Assembly: GCA_044892525.1 (NCBI GenBank)
Contig: CM097885.1
Location: 112,344,001 to 112,408,000 of the forward strand
Origin: Schmidtea polychroa
Lineage: Eukaryota
DNA length: 64,000 bases
Direction of reading: 5' to 3'
Numbering within the stretch: position 1 is the stretch's first letter; each line of letters opens with the position of its first letter. A program made the translations under genes and the position numbers. The notes under the pieces were generated by a model that saw only the letters and a program-made list of their open reading frames with translations, was not told the origin of the DNA and did not search any database. Shown here one piece after another: positions 1 through 36,968 of the stretch.

Positions 1-2
1 CA

Positions 3-482
3 TCATTCTATAAAGAACAAATATTTGGTGACAGAAGAATGCCTAATTTTATTCTGGTAACATTTCAAAGTGAAACGCAATATATTGGATCGTATACTGC
101 TTCCAGCTCAATTTTCAAAAATTTTGGTGTTACTTCATTGACTTTGTCGAAAAATACTGATTATAGAGAAACATATACTCAAGATTTCGAGAATGATAAT
201 TACTGTGCGACATATATGCAGAGTATTGTTAGAAATCTGGGTTATTTAGATAAAAACTTGAATTGCGGAATAACTCTTGAAGAATTTAAAAGCAAATACC
301 CATTTTTCACATTTGTTCTAGCTCCCGATTTTGATTTAAATCAGAGTCAATTACCACAAAACGGGAATTTACGACTGGATATAAAGTTTGCAAAGGCCAT
401 TACTGAACCAGTACATGTTATAATATATGGAGTATTTGAAAATGAAGTTCAAATTACTGCAAATAGAACCGTGCTAGTATAA
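3..482 (+). CDS. Polinton major capsid protein (double jelly-roll, PY/hexon-like), C-terminal part; frame is open to the window edge
   Basis: C-terminal GNLRLDIKFAKAITEPVHVIIYGVFENEVQITANRTVLV* resembles the Polinton MCP terminus; lies directly upstream of the protease. Confidence 0.85.
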   Translation, partial: SFYKEQIFGDRRMPNFILVTFQSETQYIGSYTASSSIFKNFGVTSLTLSKNTDYRETYTQDFENDNYCATYMQSIVRNLGYLDKNLNCGITLEEFKSKYPFFTFVLAPDFDLNQSQLPQNGNLRLDIKFAKAITEPVHVIIYGVFENEVQITANRTVLV

Positions 483-510
483 ATGTATACAGAAACACCA
501 AAAAGTTGTC

Positions 511-894
511 ATGGAGTAAGTTTTTCAATACTGTTTAATTTATTAAAGTAGTTCTGTTCAGGTCAATAGAATTGGAAAACAGATATTGGGAAATGAATTT
601 GTAGGAGTTTTTCCTCTCGATAAAATCCCATATTTGAGCAATAATCAAGCCATAATCGTCAATACTCAATCGTCTCATCTTGGTGGAGAACATTGGATTG
701 CTATATATGTGAAACCTAGTAATATATTCGTGTTCGATCCTATGGGTTTCTATTACCCTGCTTTGTTGGTATCAAAACTACAAACAATGGGGAAACCTAT
801 TGTATATAATAAAACAATGTTTCAAAATCCCTTGACACAAACATGCGGTCAACATTGTTTAGCTTGGTTGTTGTATAAAAAATTTGATGATTAA
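511..894 (+). CDS. Adenain-family cysteine maturation protease, predicted spliced (exons 511-515 and 552-894)
   Basis: Motifs GVFPLD, NT..S..GGEHW (His), FDP (Asp), FQNP..QTCGQHC (Gln/Cys). The ORF has no in-frame ATG unless intron 516-551 (GTAAG...TAG) is removed, giving MDSVQVNRIGKQILG. Confidence 0.9.
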
Positions 895-1495
895 TAAANN
901 NNNNNNNNNNNNNNNNNNNNNNNNNNNNNNNNNNNNNNNNNNNNNNNNNNNNNNNNNNNNNNNNNNNNNNNNNNNNNNNNNNNNNNNNNNNNNNNNNNNN
1001 NNNNNNNNNNNNNNNNNNNNNNNNNNNNNNNNNNNNNNNNNNNNNNNNNNNNNNNNNNNNNNNNNNNNNNNNNNNNNNNNNNNNNNNNNNNNNNNNNNNN
1101 NNNNNNNNNNNNNNNNNNNNNNNNNNNNNNNNNNNNNNNNNNNNNNNNNNNNNNNNNNNNNNNNNNNNNNNNNNNNNNNNNNNNNNNNNNNNNNNNNNNN
1201 NNNNNNNNNNNNNNNNNNNNNNNNNNNNNNNNNNNNNNNNNNNNNNNNNNNNNNNNNNNNNNNNNNNNNNNNNNNNNNNNNNNNNNNNNNNNNNNNNNNN
1301 NNNNNNNNNNNNNNNNNNNNNNNNNNNNNNNNNNNNNNNNNNNNNNNNNNNNNNNNNNNNNNNNNNNNNNNNNNNNNNNNNNNNNNNNNNNNNNNNNNNN
1401 NNNNNNNNNNNNNNNNNNNNNNGAAAAATATTATTATCTAACTACACAAACATTGTGCATGCACAAAGATATGCAATCCCATTTGATACCATTTG

Positions 1496-1610
1496 ATTGG
1501 CTGATAGAGGAAAAAGTATTCAGGAATGTGTCTTAATTCTGATTGGTTGAGACATGGAAATATTCCTGTTCTATATAAACATTGACAATTCTAAAATTCG
1601 TCATAATTAT
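1496..1610 (+). promoter_or_regulatory. Pol II promoter of the Polinton accessory gene
   Basis: Two inverted CCAAT boxes (ATTGG at 1496 and 1542), TATATAAA at 1572-1579, and AAAATG start at 1638. Confidence 0.55.
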
Positions 1611-1637
1611 TCTTAAATTTACAAATTTTAAATTAAA

Positions 1638-2203
1638 ATGGACGCTGATTTACACAAAATTTTGAATGCCATGTTGATGGGTGAAAATGGTAAATTATTT
1701 AGTTATTATTATTATTATTTTTATTTATTATTTTAGAGAATTTATGGTACCAAGTGACTGAAGATGATTCAATTTTGAATGTTGATAGGATTTTCGGTAA
1801 ATTTAAATATTTTAATTTTTATGAAATTATTATTTTATTTAGAACCTATTATAATTAGCGACGATGATGATGTCGTGTTTATTGGGCAAAATGATGCCCC
1901 GGATAATGATGCCTTATTTGTTAGGCAAAACAATGTTTTTAATGAACAAAGTAAATTTATTTTATTTTAGTATATTATTTTTTAAAAATCATTTTAGTGT
2001 TTAATGTTGACATGGACGCTGAAATCGATGTTCCAATTAATAATGATTCTATTGAGGAGATGAATAATGCACTGACTTCTATCGATGAGCTGAATTATGT
2101 GGATAATACAATCGAGGAGCTTGTTAATGTGGATAATGCCCTCACTTCTATTGAGGAGGTTGCTGATAATGAATCAGATTCCGACATGGAATCACGATGT
2201 TAG
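1638..2203 (+). CDS. Four-exon acidic accessory protein (141 aa) of Polinton 1, function unknown
   Basis: Exons 1638-1689, 1737-1796, 1843-1950 and 1998-2203 are joined by three phase-1 GT-AG introns (47, 46, 47 nt). The total of 426 nt is stop-free and joins the track ORFs 1779..1970 and 1997..2203. Confidence 0.75.
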
Positions 2204-2358
2204 TATTTATTTATTTTTATATATTTATTTTTTTTTTAAAAACCTTGTAAATTTCTTAAATACTTTTTAAACATTTTCTTTAAAAACTTATTTATAAAAA
2301 CTTATTATGAAAATGAAGAAAATATTATGATGAAATTGAAAATGTTATGTTGACTAAA

Positions 2359-2504
2359 TGATGAAAATATTATGATGATGAAGAAAATGATGAAAATATT
2401 ATGATGAAGAAAATGATGAAAATATTATGATGAAGAAAATGATGAAAATATTATGATGAAGAAAATGATGAAAATATTATGATGAAGAAAATGATGAAGA
2501 AAAT
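2359..2504. repeat. 26-nt tandem repeat (GATGAAAATATTATGATGAAGAAAAT)
   Basis: About 5 near-identical units read directly. Confidence 0.85.
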
Positions 2505-2630
2505 GTTTAAAAAGTATTTAAGAAACAATAGTTTTAAAATATTCCTTGTAGTTTGCAATGAGCAACTACATTAGTTAAAATAATAATAATAATAATAATA
2601 ATATTAAAAATAGTAATAAAAATATATCTT

Positions 2631-3060
2631 GTAGTCTGCAGTGAGCATGCAGCTACATATCTCTTTTATTATGTTTGCCCTAATAAATGTAGTCTGCAGT
2701 GAGCATGCAGCTACATATCTCTTTTATTATGATTGCCCCAATAAATGTAGTCTGCAGTGAGCATGCAGCTACATATCTCTTTTATAATGATTGCCCCAAT
2801 AAATGTAGTCAGCAGTCAGCTGCATCAAATATTTATTACATAATAAATACCATTTATTAAATATAGTCTGCATGCAGCTGCATCAAACTATTTATTACGT
2901 AATACATACCCTTTATTAAATGTGTCTAAATGCAGCTGCAACAAACTATTTATTACGAAATAATTAACCCTTATTAAATATAGTCTGCATGCAGCTGCAT
3001 CAACTATTTATTATGTAATAATTATAATCTTTAAATGTAATCTGCATGCAGCTGCATCAA
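2631..3060. repeat. ~58-bp tandem array in two subtypes, upstream of PolB
   Basis: GTAGTCTGCAGTGAGCATGCAGCTACA units near 2631, 2689, 2747; ATGCAGCTGCA units at 2872, 2930, 2989, 3046. Confidence 0.85.
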
Positions 3061-3238
3061 TAATGATAATAATGATAATAATAATAATAATAATAAAATC
3101 ACACATTTATAGTTTACAAGACTTTATTAATATAAATACAATTTCATGATTAATATTAATTGATAAATATAATTAACAGGCAAATTATATCCACATTACT
3201 GCCAGGCTTCAACTGGTCACTCAAATTTATGTCACAAA

Positions 3239-4390
3239 GTGATGAAAAAATATTATGGTCGTAAATTTTATGGCATCAAGTACTATATATGCCCAATATG
3301 CGAGACTTCCCATAGCATTAAATATTTAGAGTTTTACAGTATACATAAATCCCATTTAAATCAGTTCTCTTTAAATAAAAAGGATTTATTTAACAAACTA
3401 CGAAATACTGCAAAACCTATAATTAAAACTAATGTAAATAATACAAAACCTGTAAATAATATTACAAAACCTGTAAATAATAATACAAAACCTGTAAATA
3501 ATATTACAAAACCTGTAAATAATAATACAAAACCTGTAAATAATATTACAAAACCTGTAAATAATAATACAAAACATGTAAATAATAATACAAAACATGT
3601 AAATAATATTACAAAACCTCTAATTAATAATGTTATTAATGTAAATAATAATTTAAAAAGACCTGCTGTTAGTATTGGGTCTGATGCTCCCTCTAAAATT
3701 AATAAATTAGAACAAATAACTGTGGTTAATAATATTCAAGTAGGCGGTTCAGTCGATATTGACGATGAACCTGAAATCGAAATTGATTTTAAGGGGGTTC
3801 GAAAGAATCTAAGATTTAATGTAGAAAAGGATAACATCATTCAAATATCCATAACCGATAAAATCGTTAATAAGTTAAATCATGAAATAAACAGAATGGG
3901 GTCGGTGAAAATACAATTCTCTGTTTTGATTCAATTTGAAAAAGATGGTGAAATTAAAGATAATTTCTTCTCGAATAGGGCAGAGGCTTTTTCAGATAGT
4001 TTTCTAAGTGAGGGGGTTCACAAATTAAATAATAAAATAGAAAAATTCACATATTTGGGTAGTGGATGGCGGGTTGTTAAAATCAAAGAAATAGATTTTA
4101 TATTAACAAAATTTACACATATGAATAGGCTAGCTGGACATAGTTATATCCCCACCCCATCATCTTTAAATTCTAAAAATGCAATAGTAAACGTTAAAAA
4201 CACTGATGATATGTGCTTTATATATAGTATTTTAGCACTTTTAAAACGTAATGTCGTACATAGTCATAGGTACCGTGTTAGTTCCTATGAAAATTATCTC
4301 AACGAGTTAAATTTTGACCCCATTTCCGACTGTCCAATGAAACTATGTGATATTCCTAAATTCGAGATGAAAAATAAGGATTTAATTTAG
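3239..4390 (+). CDS. pPolB: N-terminal portion of protein-primed PolB (terminal-protein/accessory region), separated from the catalytic part by a frameshift
   Basis: GSGWRVVKIKEI, GHSYIPTPSSLNSKNAIVNVKNTDDMCFIYSIL and IPKFE..N motifs are typical of the Polinton PolB N-region; the frame continues after removing 5 nt at 4385-4389. Confidence 0.85.
   Translation: MMKKYYGRKFYGIKYYICPICETSHSIKYLEFYSIHKSHLNQFSLNKKDLFNKLRNTAKPIIKTNVNNTKPVNNITKPVNNNTKPVNNITKPVNNNTKPVNNITKPVNNNTKHVNNNTKHVNNITKPLINNVINVNNNLKRPAVSIGSDAPSKINKLEQITVVNNIQVGGSVDIDDEPEIEIDFKGVRKNLRFNVEKDNIIQISITDKIVNKLNHEINRMGSVKIQFSVLIQFEKDGEIKDNFFSNRAEAFSDSFLSEGVHKLNNKIEKFTYLGSGWRVVKIKEIDFILTKFTHMNRLAGHSYIPTPSSLNSKNAIVNVKNTDDMCFIYSILALLKRNVVHSHRYRVSSYENYLNELNFDPISDCPMKLCDIPKFEMKNKDLI
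3434..3625 (+). repeat. In-frame 21-nt / 7-aa tandem repeat (N/I)TKPVNN inside the PolB N-terminus
   Basis: About 9 units, alternating in a 14-aa higher-order period. Confidence 0.9.
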
Positions 4391-7269
4391 CAATAAATGT
4401 TTTAACTTATAGAACAACCCCTGCTAAGCCTTTTGAAAATATAGTTGACGATAATTATATTCCACATCATCCTCAATTGGATATAATTCACCGATCTAAG
4501 GTTATAGGTGGTGAACCCATATACTTACTTTTATTGGAAGATGGTGATAATTTTCATTACACCGCAGTTTTTAATTTGCAAAGATTAATGAACTCGCACC
4601 GTAGTAGCTCTTGTAGTGTTCAAATTAAAGTGAACTGGTGCCCCCATTGTCTCAATGGTTTTCGACTTAAAAATGCATTTGATATTCACGTTGCTTTATG
4701 CATTAAAAACCAGATAGGTACTACTTTATACACGCTACCCAAAGATAAAAATTTAATTTTTCAAAATTATGCGAAAACCATAACCCCGCCATTCGTGATA
4801 TATGCAGACTTTGAATCAATTTTACCGGGGGATATAATACACCATCAAAAGCATTTGCCAATAACAGCAGGTTTATTATTAATAAATAATTATAATAACT
4901 CTAAATTTTATTATGAGTTTGTTGGGGATGATTGTATCTTATCTTTCTTGCGTAAGGTGGAGGAAATTGCTATGACAATTGTCCTGCCATATTACGAAAT
5001 TAATGGGAAAAAGCCCATGCAGACCTTGTCTTTCGCTGAAGAGCGGGCCTTTCGTGATTCCAGAACCTGCTACCTTTGTAAAAAATTCATTAAGAATAGA
5101 GTTAGGGATCATTGTCACTTTTCAGGTAAGTATCTTGGTGCTGCCTGTATGAAATGTAATGTTTCTCGACGAATTCAGAAACAGTTACCTGTGGTTTTTC
5201 ACAATTTGAGGGGGTATGATCTTCATCATATTTTGAAGTATGGTTTGAATAATTTTCCTTCTTGGGAATTAAATATTATTCCGACCACTACTGAGAAATT
5301 CATCTCTCTTATCGCGTACATTAACAAATTGTCTGTTCGTTTTATTGACAGCATGCAGTTTGTTAATTCATCTTTAGCAAAAGCAGTTAAGACTCTTTCC
5401 GATCTGCCTTTAACTTCTTCTGTTTTCGATGGCGCAATTGTTCGAGCCAAAGGTATCTTTCCTTATGACTTTGCAACTTCGCTTGAGGTTCTGGAATCGA
5501 CTCTTGAATTGCCTCCTATTTGGGATTCTGTGTCTAATGATGAATATGCATTAGCCCAAGTAATTTGGACTCAGCAAAACTGCAACAACATGTTAGATTA
5601 CATGTTAACTTACCTTAAATTAGACGTGTTTCTCCTCGCAGACTATTTCCAACAATTCCGTGCAAAGGCCATTGCTTACAATGGTCTTGAGCCTCTTAAT
5701 TTCTATGGCATTCCCGGTATGTCATGGGCCTCTGCGCTTATGACATTAACGGAACCCATTGAACTTTTGCAGGACATGGAAATGTTTAATTTCTATGAAG
5801 GAGGGATACGGGGTGGGTTAACATTTGTTAACAAACATTATGTTGCAAGTTCTGAAGACACAGAACTCTTGTATATTGATATTAATAACTTGTATGGTTG
5901 GGCCTTAAGCCAAAATCTGCCTTATGCTGACTTTGTTTGGGTGTATGATGATCTTGATTCTGTCTTGAATGAATGTATGAATGCTGATATCGATAACCTT
6001 CCATATGGTTATACTATGGAGGTAGATATCGATATACCTGATTGTTTGCATGACTTTCTGAATGATTTTCCTCTTGCTCCGGAAAAGATGTGCCCGCCAA
6101 ATTCTAAAGTTGAGAAGCTGATGCTCACGCATTGGCCGAAGAAGAACCATGTTCTTCATTGGCGACTTCTCAAGTTGTATATAGAATTGGGGGCTATTAT
6201 TAAAAATGTACATAGAGCAATCAAATTTAAGCATGCACCCATTTTCAAATCTTACATAGACAAAAACACTAATTTGAGAGCCAATTCTACATGCGAATTA
6301 TATAGGGATCTATACAAATTATTTAATAATAGTCTGTATGGGAAATCCGTAGAAAACCTTAAAAAACGGATGAATTTGAGGCTATGCAATTCAGCTGAAA
6401 AGATGATTGTATATGCTTCAAAGCCGACTTTCAAGAAATCTATCAAAATTGATGATGACTTGATTGCTGCACATCTATATAAGGATTCTATATGTTTAGA
6501 CAGGCCTAGTTACATTGGCCAAACGGTGCTAGACCTGTCTAAACTGAGGATGTACCAGTTACAGTATATAGAATTGGCTAAATATAGAAATGAATTTAAA
6601 TGTGAGATAAATATCGTTGCCGGCGATACTGACTCCTTTTTTCTTGAGGTTAGGCACTGTAAGCTTGACATTCTTTTGCCGGCAATGATTCGTGACAATC
6701 TTTTAGACACTTCCAACTATGACCCTGCACATCCCTTATACTCTAGAAACCTTGATTCGGTGATAGGTAAATTTAAAGATGAAAGTAAAGGTCTAGGGTA
6801 TAAGGAATGGGTTTTCTTAAGACCCAAGTGCTATAGTTTGTTAGGGGCTAAAGATCATTTAAAAGCAAAAGGAGTCAGGTTAATAGGTACAGAAATTAGG
6901 CACGATTCATATTTAGAATGCTACAATAACAACGTAGTATTTTCTGTGCCACAAAGTAGGATAGGGACGCGGAACCATCAATTGTACACATTTAAAAACA
7001 ATAAAATCGCGTTGACAAACAACGACGACAAGCGGTTTTGGGTGGGGAAAAATTCCAGTCTCGCATTTGGTCATTATTTAGCACTAGATGATATAAATGA
7101 TGATCAAATATTTGAAGAAGTTGGGCCACTATTCGGAGGATTAAGTCCAGATTTTGTTTCTGGTGATGAGGAAGTGGGTCCACTTTTCAATGGTTTAAGT
7201 CCAGATTTCGATTCTGGTGATGATCCTAATGATAAAAGAGATATAGATGATATTTTATTGTCAGACTAA
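4387..7269 (+). CDS. pPolB: Protein-primed family B DNA polymerase, catalytic part (3'-5' exonuclease, EndoVII/HNH-like Zn insertion, polymerase)
   Basis: ExoI YADFES, ExoII FHNLRGYD, ExoIII YLKLDV, PolA YIDINNLYG, PolB KLFNNSLYGKS, PolC AGDTDS, GKFKDE, LRPKCY; CYLC..RDHCHFSG..GAACMKCN insertion. No internal stops. Confidence 0.97.
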   Translation, partial: LAINVLTYRTTPAKPFENIVDDNYIPHHPQLDIIHRSKVIGGEPIYLLLLEDGDNFHYTAVFNLQRLMNSHRSSSCSVQIKVNWCPHCLNGFRLKNAFDIHVALCIKNQIGTTLYTLPKDKNLIFQNYAKTITPPFVIYADFESILPGDIIHHQKHLPITAGLLLINNYNNSKFYYEFVGDDCILSFLRKVEEIAMTIVLPYYEINGKKPMQTLSFAEERAFRDSRTCYLCKKFIKNRVRDHCHFSGKYLGAACMKCNVSRRIQKQLPVVFHNLRGYDLHHILKYGLNNFPSWELNIIPTTTEKFISLIAYINKLSVRFIDSMQFVNSSLAKAVKTLSDLPLTSSVFDGAIVRAKGIFPYDFATSLEVLESTLELPPIWDSVSNDEYALAQVIWTQQNCNNMLDYMLTYLKLDVFLLADYFQQFRAKAIAYNGLEPLNFYGIPGMSWASALMTLTEPIELLQDMEMFNFYEGGIRGGLTFVNKHYVASSEDTELLYIDINNLYGWALSQNLPYADFVWVYDDLDSVLNECMNADIDNLPYGYTMEVDIDIPDCLHDFLNDFPLAPEKMCPPNSKVEKLMLTHWPKKNHVLHWRLLKLYIELGAIIKNVHRAIKFKHAPIFKSYIDKNTNLRANSTCELYRDLYKLFNNSLYGKSVENLKKRMNLRLCNSAEKMIVYASKPTFKKSIKIDDDLIAAHLYKDSICLDRPSYIGQTVLDLSKLRMYQLQYIELAKYRNEFKCEINIVAGDTDSFFLEVRHCKLDILLPAMIRDNLLDTSNYDPAHPLYSRNLDSVIGKFKDESKGLGYKEWVFLRPKCYSLLGAKDHLKAKGVRLIGTEIRHDSYLECYNNNVVFSVPQSRIGTRNHQLYTFKNNKIALTNNDDKRFWVGKNSSLAFGHYLALDDINDDQIFEEVGPLFGGLSPDFVSGDEEVGPLFNGLSPDFDSGDDPNDKRDIDDILLSD

Positions 7270-7549
7270 ACTGTGATAAATGTTAATATATCTTTAATAA
7301 AACGTTTCTTCTACATTGTTGTATTATCTAAAATTTTTATTGAAAACTTGTTATAGTTTTCACATTTCTTACAAATGTTAAACACTTGTATAAATATATT
7401 TATTAATATTGATAAAGTTTTTATAAATCATGTTTAACTATTGAAAGAAATTTTTATTTGAAATGTATGTATGAGCTCACCACTACATATATGAGTTGAG
7501 TGTACATTTAAAGTATAATATTTAGAATTTAGAAAGTTTTACCTTGAAT

Positions 7550-7880
7550 ATTTTTACCAGTACCTTTGTGAACAATAACCATGTGACTTGTTGAGTGTGA
7601 GTAGTACCCTTGCTAGCAATACCCATAGGGGGTCAGAATATTTTGTCGGATAANNNNNNNNNNNNNNNNNNNNNNNNNNNNNNNNNNNNNNNNNNNNNNN
7701 NNNNNNNNNNNNNNNNNNNNNNNNNNNNNNNNNNNNNNNNNNNNNNNNNNNNNNNNNNNNNNNNNNNNNNNNNNNNNNNNNNNNNNNNNNNNNNNNGCAG
7801 TACCATTGCAACTTGTTGAATGTGAGTAGTACATTTGTGTGCAGTACCCATAGGGGGACAGAATATCTTGTCGGATAGAT

Positions 7881-7918
<38 letters not shown>

Positions 7919-9059
7919 TTAAAAATAGTAATAAAACTTAGAAAATAATAATATGTAATCAACGATTTAAACAAAATTATATTATTACGTATTCGATAAT
8001 TAAAACAAAAATTATTAGTTCTAAAAATATTTGGCATCGTTCTAAAAATATTAGACATCGTTCTAAAAATATGACGTAATCGTTCTAAAAATATTTGGCA
8101 TCGTTCTAAAATTATGACGTAATCATTCTAAAAATATTAGGCATCATTCTAAAAATATTAGGCATCATTCTAAAAGTATGATGTAATCATTCTAAAAATA
8201 ATAGACATCGTTCTAAAAATATTTGGCATCATTCTAAAATATTAGACATCATTCTAAAAATGTGATGAGTCATTGTCTTTGTTCTAAAAATGTGATGAGT
8301 CATCGTATGATAAAAATCTATATCTCATTAGAAAGTTCTTGCACAGAGCTTTAAAATAAGCTATCGATCAATATAATATGTTGGCGGGAACAATAATTTT
8401 TGGGATGAAAAAAAGTAGGTCCCCGCTGGATCACTTAATTTAAAAAAAATTACGTAATAGTTCTAAAAATATTAGGCATCGTTCTAAAAATATTAGGCAT
8501 TGATTACGTAATAGTTCTAAAAATATTAGGCATCGTTCTAAAAATATTTGGCATCGTTCTAAAATTATGACGTAATCATTCTAAAAATATTAGGCATCAT
8601 TCTAAAAGTATGATGTAATCATTCTAAAAATAATAGACATCGTTCTAAAAATATTTGGCATCATTCTAAAATATTAGACATCATTCTAAAAATGTGATGA
8701 GTCATTGTCTTTGTTCTAAAAATGTGATGAGTCATCGTATGATAAAAATCTATATCTCATTAGAAAGTTCTTGCACAGAGCTTTAAAATAAGCTATCGAT
8801 CAATATAATATGTTGGCGGGAACAATAATTTTTGGGATGAAAAAAAGTAGGTCCCCGCTGGATCACTTAATTTAAAAAAAATTACGTAATAGTTCTAAAA
8901 ATATTAGGCATCGTTCTAAAAATATTAGGCATTGATTACGTAATAGTTCTAAAAATATTAGGCATCGTTCTAAAAAAAAAATAAAATTTTTTCCCGGGGG
9001 GGGAGGGGGTATATGTGATCTGGAGGGGACATGGCCGGGAGGGGACACATCATACTACT
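7550..9059. repeat. Right terminal (TIR) / subterminal repeat region of Polinton 1
   Basis: Repeat pair flanking the gap at 7554-7880; ~20-nt GTTCTAAAAATATT(A/T)GGCATC arrays at 8030-8975; a 432-bp tandem duplication (marker at 8261 and 8693); G-rich tip ending ACTACT. The partner TIR is outside the window. Confidence 0.7.
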
Positions 9060-9900
9060 TTAAAAATAAAATAAAATTATATTTATAATTAAAGGAATGA
9101 GAGAAGTGTAAGAGTGGTCAAGGAGAGAAGTGACAATGCGAAGAAGTAACATGGGTAGAAAGGTAGAAAAAGCATCAGTATATGGGAAAATCACAAAAAC
9201 CCTTCGATAATCAGATTGAAAAAAAATATATTTAAATAAAGAAAAGTAAATTAAAACAAAATAAAGAAATAGACCACTCAAAATGATTGGAATTTAAGAT
9301 CAAAAAATAAAAATAAAACACGTTCTGAAACACACAAGATCGATCCTGATTGGTCGAAGCCATGAACCACAAAACTATATAAAGGGCAGTCACAGTAGCC
9401 ACTTTACCAACTAAAAAACTTTTCCAGCGAAATTTTCGTAACCACTTTTCTGATTTTCAAAAAGTATTTTTCTACAACTTAAAATCAACTTTTTCCAAGC
9501 GTTAAAAATTCGATTTTAAATCAACCACTATTTTGTAACGACTGACCACTTCTTATCTTAACAGTAAAGACTTCAAATTTTCTTCTAATTTTTAACGAGT
9601 ACTTCGAAAATTAACATTTATCAGTTTTTTCAACTTATTCGGGATTTTTATTTTGGAAGTATTTCGAACAATCAAAATCAAGTACTAAATGATTTTCGCT
9701 TAATCTGTTCACAATGGGAGATCGATATATTTGAAATTTTGGAACCCTTAAAAATATTGGATTTGACTGGTAATTTTTTTGTTGTGAAGTTTATTTTTGT
9801 TCTTACTGTATAATAACATGACATAACATTTATTAAATTCTTAATGTTCATTCATTCTCATTTAATATGAAAATATTAGATTTTCTAGATCTTTATGTTA
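9060..9900. mobile_element. LTR-like dispersed repeat fragment, probable insertion target of Polinton 1
   Basis: TTAAAAATAAAATAAAATTATATTT and the following ~150 bp resemble 37165-37320; internal GATTGG and TATATAAAG as at 52975-53005. Confidence 0.45.
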
Positions 9901-9960
9901 ATTTTGTCATTTTTTAATTAGTGGAGTAAACATCGTGAAGGGGCGGAAGAGAAGGTACTA

Positions 9961-10288
9961 CTGTAAAATCCCGAGTATAAGCTGCAGCTAATACGTACAT
10001 TAAGGCAACATTTCTGAATTGCAGCTAATATGATGTGCAGCTTATACAACTAAAAATCGAAGATAAGATTATTTATTTCAATTTTCAACATCACACTCCT
10101 CAAAACCATCACACTTTTCATTGTCAATAAAAGTGAAATTTTTTAGTAATTCTACAATGTTTGGATCAGACTCGTTCACATTCATTTCATTTGTTTTTTA
10201 ATGATAGATTGCTGATTTTAAAATCATGTGTTTTCAACGCAAATGGTGCAGCTAATACGCGCTGCAGCTTATACTCGGGATTTTACAG
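9961..10288. mobile_element. pogo/Tc2-like MITE
   Basis: Perfect 28-bp TIR CTGTAAAATCCCGAGTATAAGCTGCAGC; TA on both sides. Confidence 0.9.
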
Positions 10289-10465
10289 TAGTTGCTTTCT
10301 CACAGGCCCGATCACGATGAATGCTAGGCGAGGGCTCTGAATATGGATCTCGCTGCGGTTACCATTGTGTATTTTTAATTTATACAAAACCCCTCGACTA
10401 AGAGAGGACGATGATAATCCAGCGAAAGTTATAGTATAGTTCCACAGCAGCCAGACATTTTCACA

Positions 10466-10811
10466 TGGAGGTGTTCACGAAGTTAGAAAACATTCCAGCA
10501 TTTAGAGGCAGAGACGGTTATATAGTAAACTGCACCACTAATTTCACTGATTTTATATCAGATCGATGAAGTTAATGTCACTAGTAGTTATCACTAGAAG
10601 TTATATTAACATAATTTGTGGTAATGTAAATATTAGTAAAGCTAAAGGATTTGTATTACAAAGACATAAGAGATCTCTTTTATCATTTGTTAACACAAAA
10701 TATCGAAATCTAATGAGAAAAATAATGTTTAAACAACAATGCAGTTTTTTAGGTACATTAATTCCAATTGTATTATCGGCTATAAGCACAATCTCGTCAT
10801 TAAATTCTTAA
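10466..10811 (+). pseudogene. Small basic Polinton protein (pX-like core protein)
   Basis: NIICGNVNIS...RHKRSL...KQQCSFLGTLIPIVLSAI resembles the LNILKGNV...QxGGFL..L protein found before Polinton integrases; 5' part is out of frame. Confidence 0.55.
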
Positions 10812-10831
10812 AATATAATATCATAGAAATA

Positions 10832-12010
10832 ATGGGTGCTAAGAATTCATTACCGGATAAACATAATTTAGATTTAAATATATTAACATCGTGTTGAAGG
10901 AAACATTTTCCAAAAAAAGGTCAAATCAAAGAAGAAAATATTAGAGAAAAAACTCAAAACGATTTGGACAAACCCGAAAGATCCAGATGGTTTTGGTGGT
11001 GTAGAAAAACTTGCAAAAAGAGTAAATAATTCAAAGAAAGAAACTCAAATATGGTTATCTAATCAATTAGCCTACAGTCTCAATAAGCCAATGTTAAAAA
11101 GATTCCCCACGAGGTCTTATAAAACATTTAATGTTAATGATTTATGGCAAATGGATTTAATGGAAATGATTTCATTTTCAAAAATTAATAAAGGATACAA
11201 ATATATTTTGACATGAATTGATGTATTTAATAGATACACTCATGCTATCCCAACAAAATCTAAATCAGCTAATGAAATGGCTGATGCATTAAAAACATTA
11301 TTTGCTGACGGACAGCCTCGTAATTTACAAACATATTTGGGTAAAATTATAAATTAAATAATTTTAAAATTTAGGTAAAGAATTTTATAATAGTAAAGTT
11401 AAAGAAATTATCAAAGGAATAAATCATTACTCAATATTTTCACAATATAAAGCAGCACATGTGGAAAGATTCAATCGTACTTTAAGAGATCGTTTGAAAA
11501 AATATTTTGTATATCAAGGCGATAAAACGTGGATAAATGTTTTGTCGAAAATAATTTACAGTTACAATTTTTCACCTCGTAGAGGATTAAATGGGATAAG
11601 ACCAATCGATATTTATTCAACAAATAGTAATGATACTTGAATATCACAACAAAATAAATCAAAAACAAAAAAGCCAAAATATAAAAAGTAGGAGACCTTG
11701 TTAGAATAAGTAAAATCAGTGCTTCTCCATTCATCAAGAATTTTGATAACAATTGGAGTGATGAAGTTTTTAAAATATTGAAAATAGATACTAATCAAAT
11801 CCGGTCATGCACTTTATTACAGATAATGAAAACGATCAAGTCAGTGGCAAATTCTACGAACAAGAACTACAAGTCATTCCATCACCCACAATCTTCAGAA
11901 TTCAAGAGATTTTAAAAACTAAATCAGGCGGGAAATATAAACAATACTATGTGAAATGGCATGGTTATAAAATTCCTAGCTGGATATCTGAAAACCAATT
12001 GATTAAATAA
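10832..12010 (+). pseudogene. Polinton retroviral-like integrase with C-terminal chromodomain; predicted 34-nt intron at 11341-11374
   Basis: WTNPKDPDGFGG, DLWQMDL, YILT*IDVF, LQT(Y)LG|GKEFYN, HVERFNRTL; chromodomain FRIQEILK...YYVKWHGY..PSWI. Has stops and a D-to-Y change at the second catalytic position. Confidence 0.92.
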
Positions 12011-12015
12011 ATATT

Positions 12016-13035
12016 ATGAAGGAAAACCAGTTTTATATGAATTTACCTAGTAATAGTTGTCCTCTTATTTATCCTGATAATAATGCTAGCAATTTTAAAG
12101 TTGAATTTCAAAACTCAATTTATTTGAATAGTAAGTGGGAAGTAGCTTTGATTGATTTTACATTTGTGTATAAACATTTTCCGTATAACAGTTATTCATC
12201 GGTACAATACGAATTTAAATAATTATGCAAAGAAACTAAATACATGAAATTCGATAATGAAAACAAAATCTTAGAAATTTTAAATTCTACATACAATCCA
12301 GATGTTGACGTGTTCTTGGAAAGATGTGAAAACGTAGTGATTGTTTGTCCACATGTTCTATTTAAAATATCATTTCTTGACACCAAACATGCATCTAAGT
12401 TTGAATTAAAAACCATATCAATCATTAGCAAAACTGACCATTGTCGAATTAAATTATCTAAATTTACTGAAAATAATATCATTGAACAAATTCGAATAAC
12501 TATAAATTACGATATCAAGACAAAATTCGAACATTATTTTGAAGATGAATTATTCTTAACTACTTTATCAGAGTTGCGAGGGTATTTAATGACAATTAAT
12601 CCATCTCCATTTAAAGAAATAAATCTTCAAAATCAAGAATTGGTAAAAATAACACTTGTAGATGATATTTCAAATATCACCTTTGATCAAAAATTAACAA
12701 AAGCTTTAGGATTAAAGAATCAAACTTATATTGAAAAAGACTTTGTTGGTGTGAAAATTCCATAAATATTTAAAATGCATCAACAAATGTTTATTTATTC
12801 AAATATTATTGAACCAATAAATGTTGGTGATGTAAGAGTTCCTCTATTAAAATCGAAATGGATTAAAAGATATGAATAGGGAGAGGTAGTTAAGTTAGAA
12901 ATAAAGAACCCAATGTACCTTCCAATTTCATCTTCATCTATAAACATTAAAATTAATATTCGCAATGATAGTGGAAAATTAGTTAAATTTTCAAAAGACA
13001 CCAAAACACATTTAACACTACATTTTCGTAAATGA
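12016..13035 (+). pseudogene. Minor capsid protein (penton, PZ)
   Basis: N-terminal FYMNLPSNS..YPDNNASNF..KWEVALID; C-terminal MFIYSNIIEPINVGDVRVPLL...LTLHFRK*; internal stops. Confidence 0.85.
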
Positions 13036-13144
13036 ATAATCCTGATATTGTAAACTTTTATAGTAATAGTCAATCTGGTGAAGATTTACCATATTTTGTT
13101 GGTAAACAATATTGAACAGGTTGGTTAAAAACAATAGGTGGATT

Positions 13145-14881
13145 CAGCGCCGGCTCTAGCATTAGTAGCGCCCCGATGCGAAACTCATTTTAGACGCCCA
13201 TTTATTTTATTGGTTTTTTGGAATTAACGTAATTTAATTGGCAATATTAAATTTGTAATAAAAACATTAAAAAATTAATAATAATTCTTTTCCAAGTGAA
13301 ATACAGGTTTTATTTTGTTTATATATTTTTTTATTTTATTGAAACAATATTATAATATACAAAAATTACATAACATACATATATTTTGTATAAAAATTGA
13401 CAAAACTATTATTCTAGATATTTACTTTTCTAGCTTTTAAACTGCCAAATTCATCAATTAAATTATGTATATCTAATTTGTCGCATATATCACTTTCAAT
13501 CGATATCATTGCTAAACCAACTAATCTTTCTTGTGAAATTGTTGATCTTAAATAATTTTTAATTAGTTTAAGCTTCGAAAAAGATCGTTCTCCGCTAGCA
13601 ACTGAAACTGGTAAAGTTAAAAATATTTTAATAGCAATTACAAAATTGGGAAAAATGGAATCCAGTAGATTTTTATATATATATTGCAAGATGTTTAGTG
13701 GGTTTTCAAAGTCTTTCAAAAATTCCTTTGCTATTTTTATTTCATTAAATAATTCTGTTGCAGATATATCTTTTTTCTCGCCATCGGTTAGCATTATTTC
13801 TAAATCAGAACAATGTTTTTTTAATGTATTATCATCCATTTTGTTAATTTCTTTTATATTATGTATAAATTCAAATTTTTCACTATATTTTGTGAAAAGA
13901 TTAAACCTTTCTTTTAAAGAATTGATAGTAATATCTAAAATTGGCAGAAAAAATGATATTTTATATTTAAGTATCGGATCAACTGGCGTTTCGTCTACAG
14001 ATTCATAACCAAAAATTTTTTTCTTTCTTCTTCGTAACGTATTATCTTTGAATTTCGCAGGTATTTCTAAATCAGCTGCTATATTTTCTGCCGTTTGAAG
14101 AATAAGACTAAAATTTTCATCGGATCTATATTCTTCAATAAATTTAATAAGACTATTTAACGCAACTGAAGAAACATTTAAGTTTTGATTTGGATTTTGG
14201 AGCAGTTTACTAACAACGTTAACTTTACTTAAAACATCGTACCAAATAACCACTGAACATATAAATTCATACTCTTTTATTTTGAAAGCCACAGCCTTAG
14301 CTTCATGCTTTGTATTATTATCTATTTCTAGGTTTTCATAAATGTCAACTAAAGCATCTAAAATTTCAGCTATTTCAAACCTAAGTGGACGAAGGGCATC
14401 GACTCTTGATTCCCACCTGGTGGCTGACAAAGGTGGCTGAACACTTTTTTATTTTACTATTAAAATTTTAATATTAAATTTTTTTTTTATTAGCGAAAAA
14501 AGTTTACCAAATAACAACTGAACTGATTGAAAACTGAATAGAACTGGTAGACTTTTAAAATAATTTTTTTTAGCATTAATTTTTTTAATCGAAATAACTA
14601 AACCGAATATAGCAGGCCGTTTCAAAATAAATTTATGCATGTATAATTTATTTTGTTTTGCGAAATAATTAAACAATTCTTAAACACTTCGAAAACTAGT
14701 AGGCCAGTAGTTTTTCAAGGAAATTTTATTTAAAAAAAAAAAAATTCTTATTAAAAAAAAATTTGTTAATGGTTTTTTTGTTAAATATTAAAAAGAAACT
14801 AAAATTCTAAATTGTTTAGCGCCCTTTCCGAGAGGCGCCCCGATGCTTTGCATCCACCGCTTCCAACTAAAGCCGGCCCTG
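13145..14881 (-). mobile_element. Internally deleted hAT transposon
   Basis: TIRs CAGCGCCGGCTCTAG / CAGGGCCGGCTTTAG; perfect 8-bp TSD GGTGGATT at 13137-13144 and 14882-14889. Confidence 0.95.
13414..14430 (-). pseudogene. hAT transposase C-terminal half (ZMYM1-like group)
   Basis: SATRWESR and the dimerization domain LTLPVSVASGERSFSKLKLIKNYLRSTISQERL; N-terminal half is missing. Confidence 0.9.
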
Positions 14882-15000
14882 GGTGGATTTGCTTTAAAAG
14901 AGATTCAAATTACATCCAATCGTACAGTACTAGTGTAAATAAAGTTTGAAAATTATTGGCTTGAACTATAAACTAAATTAGGAAACAATAATTATTAAAA

Positions 15001-15290
15001 ATGAAGTAAGAATTTAATTTTAATTACTTTAATTTATTGATAATAGTTCTATTCAGATTGAATACATAGGTCGAAGAATTGTTCGGAGCTGAATTTCTTG
15101 GAGTTTTTTCATTAGATAAAATACCATATATTGATGTAAACAAGGTTTTAATTTTAAATACTCAATCTTGTAATTTCAAGTGAGAACTTTGGCTCGCAGT
15201 TTATGTGAAACCGGAAAAAATATATGCATTTGATCCCATGGGGTTTAATTATCCTATTTTCAATTATTTTCCATATAGGTCTGATTGTTT
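15001..15290 (+). pseudogene. Adenain protease of Polinton 2; predicted 41-nt intron at 15006-15046; frameshifted
   Basis: Spliced start MNSIQIEYIG; EFLGVFSLDKIPY, LILNTQS, WLAVYVKPEKIYAFDPMGFNYP align with the element 1 protease. Confidence 0.85.
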
Positions 15291-16234
15291 CTTTTCCATC
15301 TTTAAAACCCTGAATTTGAATTTTTATCATAAAATGTGAATTTTCATTTTCATTTTTAATATTTTCTAAAGCATAATCTTTATAACAATTCATAAATGTA
15401 AAGTTTTCATTGAATTGTATATTTTTATTGATAGCCAACAATAATTCTAAAATATTTTTTTATCGATGTTACCTACTTGTATATTATATAAACTCTGTTT
15501 CAAAGTTACAGGTTCCAAATAAAAATTTAATTAATATTTGATTAAACTATATAAATATAATTACTTTAAACGAATAAGTTATTGGATATTTTAAATATTC
15601 CATAGAATATTGTAGGAACTGAACCGGAGATTTTCTAATAAAATTAACTGTCGATGTTGAATTTTCCTCAAGAATTAACTTGATTACATCTGAATTTACT
15701 TGTTTCTCCATCTTTTTCACTGAAGTTTCTAGAATAATGATTAAGCAATACTAGATAATGATAATGATATTACTTTTATATTGTTGCATCATTAAATATA
15801 ATAATTTCATGCACTCAGTAAATATATATTAATTTTAAAAATCGAGTTGACCAATTAGACAAATCATTTTAATTTTATTGGATGAAAAATTTTATGTGTG
15901 TATAGCATTTCTGATTTTTTAAATATTTATTTCTAATAATCAATTTATGATGTTCATATATTCGTTTTTATTTATAATACAATCTTTTTATAATTTATTT
16001 TGAAACTTAGGTATCTTTGCAATTCATCCGTTCATGACAAAAATTGTCAAAACTATGGGAAAATATTATGGCCAACACCATAACCGTGTTATTTAATTTG
16101 TTTGCCTCATTTGTAATTCAACAGAAAAATTAAATTATTTTGACTTTTATGATCAACATAAAGGTCATTTAAATAAATTATTACATAATTAACTTATCAT
16201 TGCCTCATATTATATTTGATTATGTAATTTTGTA

Positions 16235-16852: not shown

Positions 16853-17965
16853 TGTAAGATAGCAGCTCACCTGCCCTTTATTTATTAATGACAGTGGACA
16901 GTATTAACATGATGATCGTCAAAGGCACATTGATCGCGAACATCTCAAGTCATGAGTGGTTTGTTACCGAGTCAACGATCTACTATTAACCTTATTTTAT
17001 TCACGTTCTTGAGGATAAAAAAATAATAATAAATAACAATAAATAAACAAAATTACCTGAGGGAAAATCGTCGTAATAAACGGGATCTATGGAAACTCAC
17101 AGAGGAAAACGAAAGTAAAAGAAATGAGAAATGAGAAAAGGTATCAAACAAAAGAAGTCGAACAAGAAATTAAAACAAAGGTCATCAGTAATTAAAGAGA
17201 ACAAAAAGGGGAAAATGAATTTCAAATTCCAAAAAAACAAAAACTGAAAATACATATCTCGACAGCCTGCAGAGATAGCGGATTCAAATAAAAAGGCGGA
17301 TAAACGAAAAATGGAAATTATAAAAAAATTATCTCGATAGCTGTCAGAGATAGTGGGAAGCAAAATTATGTGTTCCAAAGGTAAATTAGGAAAAACAGAA
17401 AGATAAGCCTAAGTACCACAAAATGATGAGCTATATAAAAAAGAGGCAGAAGCAGAAGAAAACGACGATGAAATTGTATTAGAAAGTGGAGACGAGAAAT
17501 TTGAGAGGAAAATTTGTAACGGAAATTGTGGAAATTCGCCGAAACGAATTGTTAAGATAATAATGGTTGGAGAAAATCGCCAGAAAAGAATTGTTAGAAA
17601 CCAGACGAGAAGTTATTGAGGTAATTGAAGAAAGTTGTCGAAGATAATTAAACGAGAAACAAAAACTAATTATTGATCAAAGAGTGCTAAAGAAAACGCT
17701 TAGCGAGTAGAATCCAAGTCACGCAAAGAAAACAACCAGCTCAAATTCACCGTTGTTAGAACCAATCGGTAGCTAGTGATCCCCAACCCAGTATTATTCG
17801 TCACAGAGTGTCGTAATAAGCGCTGTGTAATTGTCGGCCAGATTGTTGAACCAATCGTGTTATTGAGTAGTGAAAATTATTTGTGATTATCAATAAAATT
17901 TCATGTTATCAATTGTTATTTGTGGGTTAGTTAAAAGCACGCTTGGAGTCAAAGTAAGAATTACA
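16853..17965 (+). mobile_element. Gypsy-type 3' LTR preceded by a polypurine tract
   Basis: AAAGGGGAGTAG precedes TGTAA...TTACA termini; internal AATAAA near the 3' end. Confidence 0.65.
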
Positions 17966-17985
17966 AAAATTACCTGATTAAATTA

Positions 17986-18900
17986 CAAAATTACCTGAGG
18001 GAAAATCGTCGTAATAAACGGGATCTATGGAAACTCACAGAGGAAAACGAAAGTAAAAGAAATGAGAAATGAGAAAAGGTATCAAACAAAAGAAGTCGAA
18101 CAAGAAATTAAAACAAAGGTCATCAGTAATTAAAGAGAACAAAAAGGGGAAAATGAATTTCAAATTCCAAAAAAACAAAAACTGAAAATACATATCTCGA
18201 CAGCCTGCAGAGATAGCGGATTCAAATAAAAAGGCGGATAAACGAAAAATGGAAATTATAAAAAAATTATCTCGATAGCTGTCAGAGATAGTGGGAAGCA
18301 AAATTATGTGTTCCAAAGGTAAATTAGGAAAAACAGAAAGATAAGCCTAAGTACCACAAAATGATGAGCTATATAAAAAAGAGGCAGAAGCAGAAGAAAA
18401 CGACGATGAAATTGTATTAGAAAGTGGAGACGAGAAATTTGAGAGGAAAATTTGTAACGGAAATTGTGGAAATTCGCCGAAACGAATTGTTAAGATAATA
18501 ATGGTTGGAGAAAATCGCCAGAAAAGAATTGTTAGAAACCAGACGAGAAGTTATTGAGGTAATTGAAGAAAGTTGTCGAAGATAATTAAACGAGAAACAA
18601 AAACTAATTATTGATCAAAGAGTGCTAAAGAAAACGCTTAGCGAGTAGAATCCAAGTCACGCAAAGAAAACAACCAGCTCAAATTCACCGTTGTTAGAAC
18701 CAATCGGTAGCTAGTGATCCCCAACCCAGTATTATTCGTCACAGAGTGTCGTAATAAGCGCTGTGTAATTGTCGGCCAGATTGTTGAACCAATCGTGTTA
18801 TTGAGTAGTGAAAATTATTTGTGATTATCAATAAAATTTCATGTTATCAATTGTTATTTGTGGGTTAGTTAAAAGCACGCTTGGAGTCAAAGTAAGAATT
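17986..18900 (+). repeat. Tandem duplicate (938-bp period) of the 3' part of the LTR
   Basis: Identical track ORFs at 17097 and 18035; sequence looks identical by eye. Confidence 0.9.
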
Positions 18901-19570: not shown

Positions 19571-32963
<13,393 letters not shown>

Positions 32964-34223: not shown

Positions 34224-34268
<45 letters not shown>

Positions 34269-34271
<3 letters not shown>

Positions 34272-36895
34272 GGGTGGCAAAACTTTCAAGTCTTGCGGGC
34301 GACTTTTAACTAAATTAAATCTGGCGGTCTACCAGAAAAACTATTTTCAATTGTTACCTGTAGTTATTCTATTTATTCTATTTAAATACAAAACGAATTA
34401 GAAAAAAACTTATAATACTTTACTAGAACGTAAACATATCTTAATATAATATTATTTACTGCTACTACTTGCACCTGATACGTGGCACTGCATCTTATCA
34501 GCAAGTTCTTCGTATTTCGGGCAATAGGAGCTTATGGCGATCCGCAAGCATGATTCCAAATGATCATCTGTCAAACAAGATCGATGTTTTGTTTTAATGA
34601 CATTCATTGAAGAAAAGGCTGATTCACAAAGATAGGTGGATCCAAAAAATGCGGACATATATTCAACTACTCTCCGCAAAATTGGATATTTTTCTTCTGA
34701 AATAAGATTCCAAAAATTATCTTCGGTTGTAGCTCTTGATTTTAAGTAAATGTCGCTTTTCAACGCTATTATCTCATCTTCTAAGCAAGCTGAATCTGAA
34801 TCCAGAAATTCATTAATCTGAGTAGCGATCTCCTCTGTATCAATAACATCATTAAACGGGAATGACATGAACATAGCAATATTTGCAATTTTAGATAAAT
34901 CTGCGAAACGTGTGTTAAATTCATTTAAAAGGGTAGTAATTTGATTTGTATATTTATCGTAAAGAATTCCTGGCGCATTTTTGGATTCTTCTTCCATGTT
35001 TTTAAAATGTTTCAAATCACCCCGTTCTAGTTGACGCACAAACAAGGACAGTTTCTCTTTAAACGTCTTTACTGCCGTTATCATGTCAAGAATTGATTTG
35101 TGTCTCCCCTGAAGCTGTAAATTTAATTTATTCAGGTGCTCTGTAATGTCGCAAAGAAAAGCAAGATTTATCAGCCAACTTTTATCCTCCAGTTCGGGAT
35201 ATAATTCTTCTCTTCCAGTCAAAAACTGTTTTATTCCGGGCAAAAGATCTCTAAATCGTTTTAAAAATGCTGCACGGCTAAGCCATCTTACATCCGTGTG
35301 TAACAATAATTCAGTATTTTCAATTTCACATTGTTCAAGCAAAGTTCGAAATTGACGTCGTTGTAGACTTTTTGCACGTATCGAATTTACTATTTTAAAC
35401 GCAATATTCATTACATAATTAGAGTTCAACACTTTGGAGCATAAGGTTTGCTGGTGGATAATGCAATGATACGAATGAAAACTGGGAATTTCTTCATCAT
35501 TTTTGCAAAGTGTTACAAATCCGACATGTTTTCCGATCATAGACGGAGCTCCATCCGTGGTAATTGATACCAACTTGTGAATCGGGAAATGGGTGCGACT
35601 TATAAAAGACTTGAATAAATTGTAAATATCTTGACCCCTTGTTTGTCCTTTCATTGGAAGAATAGTCAATAATTCTTCTCTGGTTGACATATCATCAAAA
35701 ACCATTCGAATGAAGATGCATAGTTGCGCAGTATCAGTGAAATCTGTAGATTCATCAAATTGCAAAGAGAAAAAGCGGCATTTTCGAATATCTTGCCGCA
35801 AAATATCTTCCAAGTTTTTGCTAATGTCCACCATTCTTTGCGTGCTAGTATTGCGCGTCAATGACATATTGTTGATACAATCCATTATTTCGGATTTATT
35901 TTTAAAATCTTTGAATAACACCTCACCAGCTTCAACAAACGCCTGTTTCCATATTTCGCCATCTCCAAAAGGTTTTTTATGTTTCATCAAAATATTAACT
36001 ACCTTGAATGATGCTAGGGTAGCTGTTTTTGATTTTGAGTTAAATTTCGTAAAAAAAGTTTGTTGTGCACCTAATTGAGACTTTAACTGCTTGACTTTGT
36101 CTTTTCGTACCTCGGAATGTAATGGAAAGTCATACTGTTTGTGCACTGTTCGAAAATGTCGTTCAACGTTAGCTCTTTTAGGTAGTGCTACGTTTGAATT
36201 ACAAATGAGACAAACACACTTATCTTTCATCATTATGAAAAAAAATTCCTGTTCCCATTCAGTATTATAATGGTACGTTTTAGTTTTTTTGGCCGGTTGT
36301 GTCATTGGGGCTAAAACAAGAAAATAATAAAAGCTAAAATAAATTTAATATGAAAATTAATGTTAGACACACTTACATACTCAAAAATTAAAAATGTTAA
36401 CTTTTATAAAGAATTTTTTTTAATAAAAAAATTTTGAAATTAATATTATAAGCAGGTATTATTCAATACTGAATACTTCAAGCTTTCAAATTTTTCTAAC
36501 GAAAACAATTTGATTTCAAAATTGAAATAGACAAACACACGTTTGTTGTATTTTATTTTGGTTGTTTTTTATTTTTTTATTCCTTATCGAAGATTGTAGC
36601 GTCAATGTTTTGCTTTTATTTTATGGCCTACTTGTTCAAACACATGAAATTTATTCTGATTATTAGCTAACTGTATATATTTGAATTTCAAACTAAAAAT
36701 TTACTACACTCTGAGTGTTATCTGACTAATATTATGTTTCTTATTGGAATTTTTTTGTCATATGAATCGAAACTTATTTTAAATATGTTTATAAAGTTAG
36801 AAATTCAATAAATAAAAAACTGATTTTTATATGCAATTTTCCATAGTGCTAGCGGGCTACTTTCGATAGCTACGCGGTCGACGCTTTTGCCAGCC

Positions 36896-36898: not shown

Positions 36899-36968
<70 letters not shown>

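Follow-up and report, generated by a model that had tools for sequence, protein, structure and literature searches.

Can the core genes of an animal Polinton carry introns that the host removes? The question is raised by a 64,000-nt stretch of the Schmidtea polychroa genome (GenBank assembly GCA_044892525.1, contig CM097885.1, positions 112,344,001 to 112,408,000 of the forward strand), here called the window, which holds parts of two diverged Polintons, elements 1 and 2. An earlier note on this DNA had proposed six short GT-AG introns in their protease, integrase and accessory genes. We consider it very probable that Polinton protease, integrase and DNA polymerase genes carry inherited GT-AG introns at fixed positions, most likely removed by the host spliceosome; the reading of these intervals as spliced introns is well supported at the DNA level and weakly at the RNA level.

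The host genome (781 Mb, AT-rich) holds hundreds of copies of these Polintons. Positions 1-9059 of the window are the right part of element 1, a 16,524-bp member of family 1 bounded by terminal inverted repeats with the termini AGTAGT...ACTACT, and positions 10593-16174 are a decayed copy of family 2, about 72% identical in DNA to the family of element 1 and carrying stops, deletions and an inserted hAT transposon. The hallmarks of Polintons are present, namely long terminal inverted repeats, a 6-bp target-site duplication, the polymerase gene pPolB, an integrase (PF00665, E 8.9e-08 in family 1 and 3.6e-12 in relatives), a packaging ATPase (PF04665, E 7.1e-08) and an adenovirus-type cysteine protease (PF00770, E 1.2e-06). 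Family 1 is young and large, the protein of protease exon 2 being 100% identical in all 150 matches scored, out of 5053 candidates.

Probable introns in the protease and integrase genes

All six intervals begin with GT, end with AG and have the proposed lengths of 36, 47, 46, 47, 34 and 41 nt in order of position (Table 1). As in U2-type introns, the donors are GTRAG-like, the 3' ends are rich in AT or pyrimidine, the flanks match uninterrupted homologues, and position and phase are conserved while the interiors have diverged. The earlier note had held that unspliced reads alone, or intact sister copies lacking the intervals, would speak against splicing; what we found is that sister copies retain the intervals and that one junction is joined in an RNA-type run, and we likewise infer the dependence on the host spliceosome that it had proposed. 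Copy-specific insertion was rejected because the intervals are present across sister loci of families 1 and 2. The signature of introners, near-identical introns at unrelated positions, was absent from the elements, where intervals share a position and have dissimilar interiors; host genes were not searched for dispersed copies. The claim that removing each interval restores a reading frame stood for the leader of element 1, which gives 140 residues without a stop, but not for element 2, where further stops and frame breaks interrupt integrase and protease. Convergence on host intron geometry does not stand as written, since it rests on five host introns, every one of which is longer than the protease introns of this genome (36-41 nt). 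Those host intervals do have GT...AG ends (46, 45, 42, 43 and 49 nt), and one of them (40688-40732) is backed by domain continuity, a Pfam DUF4200 match running from profile position 67 to 68 across it. The leader introns measure 44-49 nt and the integrase introns mostly 42-54 nt, and one intron is about 1 kb long.

The protease gene shows a single layout at its start: ATG and two bases, GTAAG, an interval of 36-41 nt in total, AG and a conserved Ser codon, in 14/14 own-genome loci from six families. These loci were chosen by protein homology alone and are those with the gene start in the fetched stretch (21 were examined, seven of them without a protease match). GTRAG has a frequency of 0.0011 per base across the remainder of the window, yet it directly follows the ATG and two bases in all 14 loci. 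Metagenomic and public relatives gave ten protease matches in 58 loci, five of which (four distinct) have the same layout, four have the ATG in place and one is unclear. Across ten families, donor (GTAAG) and acceptor (AG) are present in 10/10 at lengths of 36-47 nt that fall in all three frames, in a comparison whose pattern required GTRAG and AG and whose loci were picked by homology and also read without the pattern. The interiors have a mean identity of 0.645, against 0.610 for shuffles (45 pairs), and the families carrying the intron are only 50-65% alike in protein.

Without splicing, the protease message would read Met-X-stop, two codons and then a stop, in 13/13 rows, and the first inner Met lies at residue 66, past the His motif at 49. 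Joining exon 1, the residue X and exon 2 gives 112-132 residues in 12/13 rows, and the public protein P0024, which begins MNSVQ and has no interval, aligns with this spliced product. An upstream ATG at 483 was rejected as the protease start, being followed by 22 codons and a stop and not conserved. The TATA-like hexamer upstream of the gene is confounded with the capsid stop codon, and it was not found at that distance in four metagenomic rows. At the protease 5' end of family 5 (L177/L180), the unit of start and donor is tandemly duplicated, leaving two possible first exons.

The proposal that annotation based on open reading frames (ORFs) would err was borne out in public proteins: the N-termini of P0021, P0022 and P0023 look false, as if translated through the intron, and P0025 begins at an internal Met. 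In the integrase tree, every carrier of the protease intron belongs to a single clade (100/99) that excludes the one intronless relative tested, most rows having no protease data; this grouping is suggestive only. A scan of viral contigs yielded only four distant loci, at 26-31% identity.

The integrase intron lies just after the QTD motif of the catalytic core. The interval described in the window is present, but its 34 nt belong to a shortened copy: 28/29 sisters have 43 nt and one has 33 nt. All 30 family-2 loci examined carry it, and the genome holds 809 interrupted integrase sites in three families with different interiors, with GT and AG kept in 96/100 of the interrupted sites listed (counted by eye). 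Upstream of the window, the family-1 integrase is interrupted at the same phase-1 site by an ATT-repeat interior that stays in frame, so that its ORF reads through a 14-residue Ile-rich insertion. Retention would shift the frame in family 2, introduce a stop in family 3 and insert 12-18 hydrophobic residues in family 1. Another 115 sites are uninterrupted, and belong to at least three other families that still have the protease intron; the idea of a single intron-bearing lineage is not borne out, as this one genome harbours families of both kinds. The families without the integrase intron are also multi-copy.

Among the database matches listed, 19/20 relatives read QTD[L/E]GKEFY unbroken, in a protein search restricted to long ORFs and hence biased. 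Of the 58 public loci, none is interrupted at this site (52 cover it, four do not and two have no match). The intron ends repeat flanking sequence, up to about 11 bases in family 3, and such short direct repeats would be expected for gain at an AG|GT site. Direct repeats of this kind are linked to repair-type intron gain.

A probable polymerase leader and its predicted long intron

The accessory gene with three introns described by the earlier note is better explained otherwise: its exons quite probably form a spliced 5' leader of pPolB, joined to it by a fourth intron of about 1 kb, so that the introns are not all micro-introns. The apparent stop of the leader (2201-2203) lies inside a donor-like site at 2199, leaving a leader of 421 nt in phase 1, and a C-x6-C...C-H stretch that is in frame with pPolB begins directly after the acceptor at 3179. 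This stretch lies upstream of the first in-frame pPolB Met, is conserved in six families and starts at the acceptor in each, and it therefore needs an upstream start. A GTAAG donor of the same phase precedes the long intron in four other loci. Among 16 family-1 sisters, 14 have the acceptor, eight match both strict patterns (899-1241 nt), two more show both ends, and seven have one open frame of 1385-1396 codons after the acceptor; the window copy of pPolB is broken into two frames near 4380. Two leader alleles differ in exon 1 (in the second allele an unrelated 46-nt exon of the same phase), in the interior of intron 1 and by in-frame indels, and every phase stays 1. The leader can be dated only within this genome, because no metagenomic locus covers the pPolB 5' end.

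On another reading, which we consider unlikely, the protease and integrase introns are real but the four small exons belong to an acidic accessory gene of their own, with its stop at 2201-2203, and pPolB starts at the conserved Met. That arrangement would fit the stop-free 140-residue frame that ends in a stop, the conservation of the Met in all six families, and the small 'Oncoid' ORFs that the accessible text on adintoviruses reports upstream of PolB (PMC8502044). Against it, four other loci have GTAAG at the donor-like site that contains the stop, a C-x6-C...C-H pattern is conserved in the 20 codons preceding the Met, which start at the acceptor in every family and always in phase 1, and promoter-like boxes precede exon 1. 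An accessory product and a pPolB leader could also both be made, through intron retention.

For the spliced leader, the RNA-type data come from X1, a small-share sequencing run that we guess to be RNA and that is available as contigs only; no run is on record as RNA. One X1 contig has 45 bases before 1796 followed by 16 bases equal to 1843-1858 (junction 1796/1843), and a second, from another allele, has a loose end before 1838 that equals the end of exon 2, consistent with the same joining. The joined form has no copy in the genome assembly, where 242 sites carry the interval of leader intron 2 and none lacks it, and the DNA-like run X2 shows no such joint (two joints at repeats were dropped in processing). 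An X1 loose end after 2166 fits both spliced and unspliced forms at the long intron. Two other X1 joints (2032/2042-2130 and 2171-2130) were rejected as splicing for their non-GT-AG ends and extra letters and are read as repeat-length alleles, and a 418-base X1 contig was rejected as a spliced intron-1 product (231 versus 230 genomic bases).

Several observations weigh against splicing at these genes. RNA-type support covers one of seven junctions, leader intron 2, the protease, integrase and long pPolB junctions lying outside it, and this support is weak: the RNA nature of X1 is only guessed, neither X1 junction contig reaches the standard of 31 bases on each side, and the junction does not appear in the joint table. 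The depth of unspliced contigs is no lower (36.1 versus 12.7, 3.5 and 21.7), one X1 contig runs unspliced through leader intron 1 and from upstream of the promoter, and run X6 shows only unspliced pieces; run X7 gave no coverage, and uncovered parts count neither for nor against splicing. At the long intron, the window donor GTTAGT is weaker than GTAAGT, 6/16 sisters have no recognizable donor with the patterns used, and the in-frame Met, 21 codons past the acceptor and conserved across families, makes a shorter unspliced product possible. In the integrase, a single gain is neither rejected nor shown (approximately unbiased test, p 0.298, 15 rows; F6, which is broken, and L138 were left out of the trees).

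These points bear on the reading that nothing is spliced, with the protease expressed by re-initiation after a minimal Met-X-stop upstream ORF or from a non-AUG start, and with the integrase intervals being insertions of microsatellite type that family 1 tolerates but that would be lethal in others. The RNA-type data bear on the leader and not on the protease and integrase junctions; the family-1 integrase stays in frame with its insertion, the AG|GT repeats could come from slippage alone, and 115 sites lack the interval. We nevertheless judge this very improbable, since the protease AG is fixed one base before a conserved Ser/Thr codon at lengths in all three frames, three young high-copy families have different interiors at one integrase site, two of them frame-breaking, and a leader junction is joined.

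Other features of the polymerase module were also observed. In families 2 and 3 (L065:5780-5850; L183:7070-7130), the first leader intron seems, by eye, to precede the start codon; the leaders there consist of Asn/Lys-rich repeats and bear no relation to the acidic one of family 1. Pfam profiles, the only ones used, gave no match at E<=1 for 3182-4387 to the OTU-like domain that adintoviruses have at the PolB N-terminus. Positions 5056-5163 encode an endonuclease-VII/HNH-like domain within pPolB (PF02945, E 1.2e-04, under the cut-off); such a domain is called unique to nematode and oomycete pPolB2 in the accessible text of 10.1101/2023.08.22.554363.

Organization of the elements and the window

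Table 1. Positions of the Polinton features in the window
Feature	Position	Strand	Support or remarks
3' end of probable major capsid gene, element 1	1..482	+	ORF 3-482; continues 407-aa ORF of sister copies
TATA-like hexamer overlapping capsid stop, 33 nt before protease ATG	478..483	+	32-35 nt before ATG in 9/9 own-genome rows
Protease exon 1 (ATG and two bases), element 1	511..515	+
Protease intron, 36 nt, phase 2; donor holds in-frame stop	516..551	+	30/30 family-1 loci
Protease exon 2 (adenovirus-type cysteine protease)	552..894	+	PF00770
Leader exon 1	1638..1689	+	CCAAT- and TATA-like boxes just upstream
Leader intron 1, 47 nt, phase 1	1690..1736	+	Two distinct interiors among the 13/16 sister loci that have it (44-49 nt)
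Leader exon 2, 60 nt (63 in second allele)	1737..1796	+
Leader intron 2, 46 nt, phase 1	1797..1842	+	The one junction backed by RNA-type data
Leader exon 3, 108 nt (87 in second allele)	1843..1950	+
Leader intron 3, 47 nt, phase 1	1951..1997	+	14/16 sister loci, 46-48 nt
Leader exon 4, acidic, repetitive, 201 nt	1998..2198	+
Predicted long intron, 981 nt, phase 1, tandem-repeat-filled, leader to pPolB	2199..3179	+	Donor and acceptor; missed in the earlier note
pPolB main exon: Cys/His-rich start, endonuclease-VII-like domain, B-family polymerase	3180..7269	+	PF03175 E 1.7e-25; PF02945 E 1.2e-04
Right terminal inverted repeat, element 1	7798..9059	.	Reverse match to left end of family-1 copies
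6-bp target-site duplication	9060..9065	.	Identical hexamer ahead of the left end at L061
Decayed element 2 (family 2), with remnants of integrase and of a probable minor capsid gene	10593..13144	+	94.7% to sister L065; stops, frame breaks
Integrase intron, phase 1, after QTD motif	11341..11374	+	34 nt in this copy against 43 nt in most sisters; families 1 and 3 are interrupted at the same position
hAT transposon within element 2, adjoining capsid-gene deletion	13145..14895	-	Dimer_Tnp_hAT E 1.1e-11 (ORF 13414-14448); gap in alignment to L065
Element 2 protease exon 1	15001..15005	+
Element 2 protease intron, 41 nt, phase 2	15006..15046	+	30/30 family-2 loci (27 by strict pattern, 3 more by reading)
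Element 2 protease remnant, broken after 16 codons; deletion ~15255; then long pPolB intron tail, acceptor ~16010	15047..16174	+

The capsid candidates are conserved ORFs of 407 and 338 residues in the expected places, without a Pfam match and labelled from position and size, and the ATPase and capsid ORFs have no introns in the families examined. In family 3, the probable minor capsid gene is present in two tandem copies (L183:2716-4738; L181). The polymerase module is inverted in family 5 (L177, L180), and many family-1 protease loci (L002, L003, L010, L013) then carry a different module, which suggests module swapping among elements.

In families 1 and 2, the start of the integrase gene is overlapped, in a different frame, by a short ORF that begins with MG(A)xxS (L070:5428-5655; L064:1192-1485; window ~10831); this ORF has no Pfam match and could presumably encode a myristoylated small virion protein. 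Upstream of the ATPase gene, and head to head with it, lies a small TBP-like gene (PF00352, E 2.8e-15; L070:3720-4196, minus strand; also L061, L176 and L181-L187), found in several families whose own genes have TATA-like boxes; 'TBP' also appears in a figure legend of PMC8502044.

Elsewhere in the window, host genes for a GDP-mannose 4,6-dehydratase and a DUF4200 protein (21787-29475, minus strand, and 38575-49043, plus strand) contain both micro-introns and multi-kb introns. A duplication with a 938-bp period and 300-bp cores that are 100% identical occupies 17047-18346, and a second transposase of 630 aa, apparently open, lies on the minus strand at 34228-36939 between 55-bp inverted repeats in TA runs.

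Proposed mechanism and comparison with known systems

In the model that we propose, nuclear transcription of the elements by host Pol II starts from TATA-like boxes, and their short AT-rich introns would be spliced at little cost. Protease transcription likely starts just downstream of its TATA-like box, and because the donor itself holds the in-frame stop, the enzyme could be made only after splicing. Active integrase likely needs splicing too, since retention of its intron disrupts the frame or inserts residues. The earlier suggestion that splicing gates the expression of these two genes holds only insofar as the proteins cannot be encoded by unspliced messages. For the polymerase, the prediction is that removal of four phase-1 introns, three of 44-49 nt and one of about 1 kb, connects the conserved Cys/His-rich start of pPolB to a leader that is acidic and evolves fast. 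The protease intron was probably gained first, as it is common to families without the integrase intron and to metagenomic relatives; the integrase probably acquired its intron later, at an AG|GT site. Once gained, introns may persist in an element that replicates as DNA and has no reverse-transcription step to erase them.

The introns may in addition have been selected as a means of control, either marking viral transcripts as host-like against the silencing of intronless RNA or timing protease and integrase expression. Consistent with this, the protease intron is kept beside the cap and start codon across families that differ widely in protein, Polintons are PIWI/piRNA targets in the planarian S. 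mediterranea in the accessible text of PMC8532177, and the available part of 10.64898/2026.10.09.758095 describes host-like introns enriched in latency genes of an endogenous giant virus. We regard such selection as rather doubtful, because it looks the same here as an inability to lose the intron precisely, the ATPase and capsid ORFs show no introns in the families examined, and families with an intronless integrase are also multi-copy; it is compatible with our best explanation and the two are not exclusive. Also less likely than not is a broad, old animal Polinton clade in which protease splicing became obligatory through an intron at the start codon with the stop in its own donor, and which went on to gain introns in integrase and polymerase, selected to pass as host mRNA and to time the life cycle, widespread and filtered out or mis-annotated by ORF-based surveys, for which families with and without introns in one genome would be a direct system for studying intron gain.

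For one clade, these results overturn the working rule that Polinton core genes are intronless, and, as in the related adenoviruses, they link the elements to Pol II transcription in the nucleus and to the spliceosome. ORF-based pipelines misplace the N-termini of such genes, score functional genes as broken or annotate leaders as accessory genes in their own right, as is seen in public proteins. Intron gain can be tested directly in this genome, which has families with and without the integrase intron, dated copies in the hundreds and direct repeats at the intron ends.

Among known systems, adenovirus is a distant relative in which the mRNAs of the E2B polymerase and pTP obtain host splicing, the polymerase start codon coming from a small upstream exon. 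Adenovirus splicing is long and alternative, its promoters are shared and the virus does not integrate, whereas the introns described here are constitutive-looking micro-introns, one of them inside the integrase core.

The present elements share with animal Polinton/Maverick elements (adintoviruses), as far as the accessible parts of PMC8097293, PMC8502044 and 10.1101/2022.07.12.499685 describe them, the terminal inverted repeats, the 6-bp target-site duplication, a length of about 16.5 kb and pPolB, as well as an rve integrase with chromodomain, an A32-type ATPase, an adenovirus-type protease and probable capsid genes. They differ from reported Polintons in that protease, integrase and pPolB are interrupted: the available text of PMC8097293 gives no introns in 134 intact vertebrate Maverick/Polinton elements, and that of 10.1101/2022.07.12.499685 describes nematode Maverick core genes as intronless, with introns only in cargo genes. 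By the account accessible in PMC8502044, contigs entered the adintovirus survey for their arrays of large ORFs, a choice that would work against intron-bearing genes. Our literature search found no published report of spliceosomal introns in core genes of animal Polintons, Repbase, paper supplements and most subscription papers being outside the search.

Introns have been described in related elements, again as far as the accessible text of each source goes. Maverick-polinton-like proviruses of dinoflagellates carry introners, which are likewise spliceosomal-type introns inside Polinton-like elements, but these are young, transposon-made and mostly acquired after integration (PMC11957031), whereas the introns here are old, fixed in position, shuffle-like in their interiors and inherited with the element. 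Polinton-like viruses of protists also have introns in their genes, in that case self-splicing group I introns of 309-376 bp (PMC12220804), and the AT-rich GT-AG introns of 36-54 nt found here leave no room for a ribozyme. Ginger1 transposons have a related DDE integrase-type gene with one to four mostly GT-AG introns (PMC2836005), but are single-gene cut-and-paste transposons without a viral module. Similarly, an endogenous giant virus, the punuivirus (10.64898/2026.10.09.758095), is an integrated DNA virus whose host-style spliceosomal introns were missed by the first annotation; it is a giant virus of an alga with introns in 61/506 genes (mean 176 bp), enriched in latency genes, whereas the introns of the present Polintons interrupt replication and maturation enzymes.

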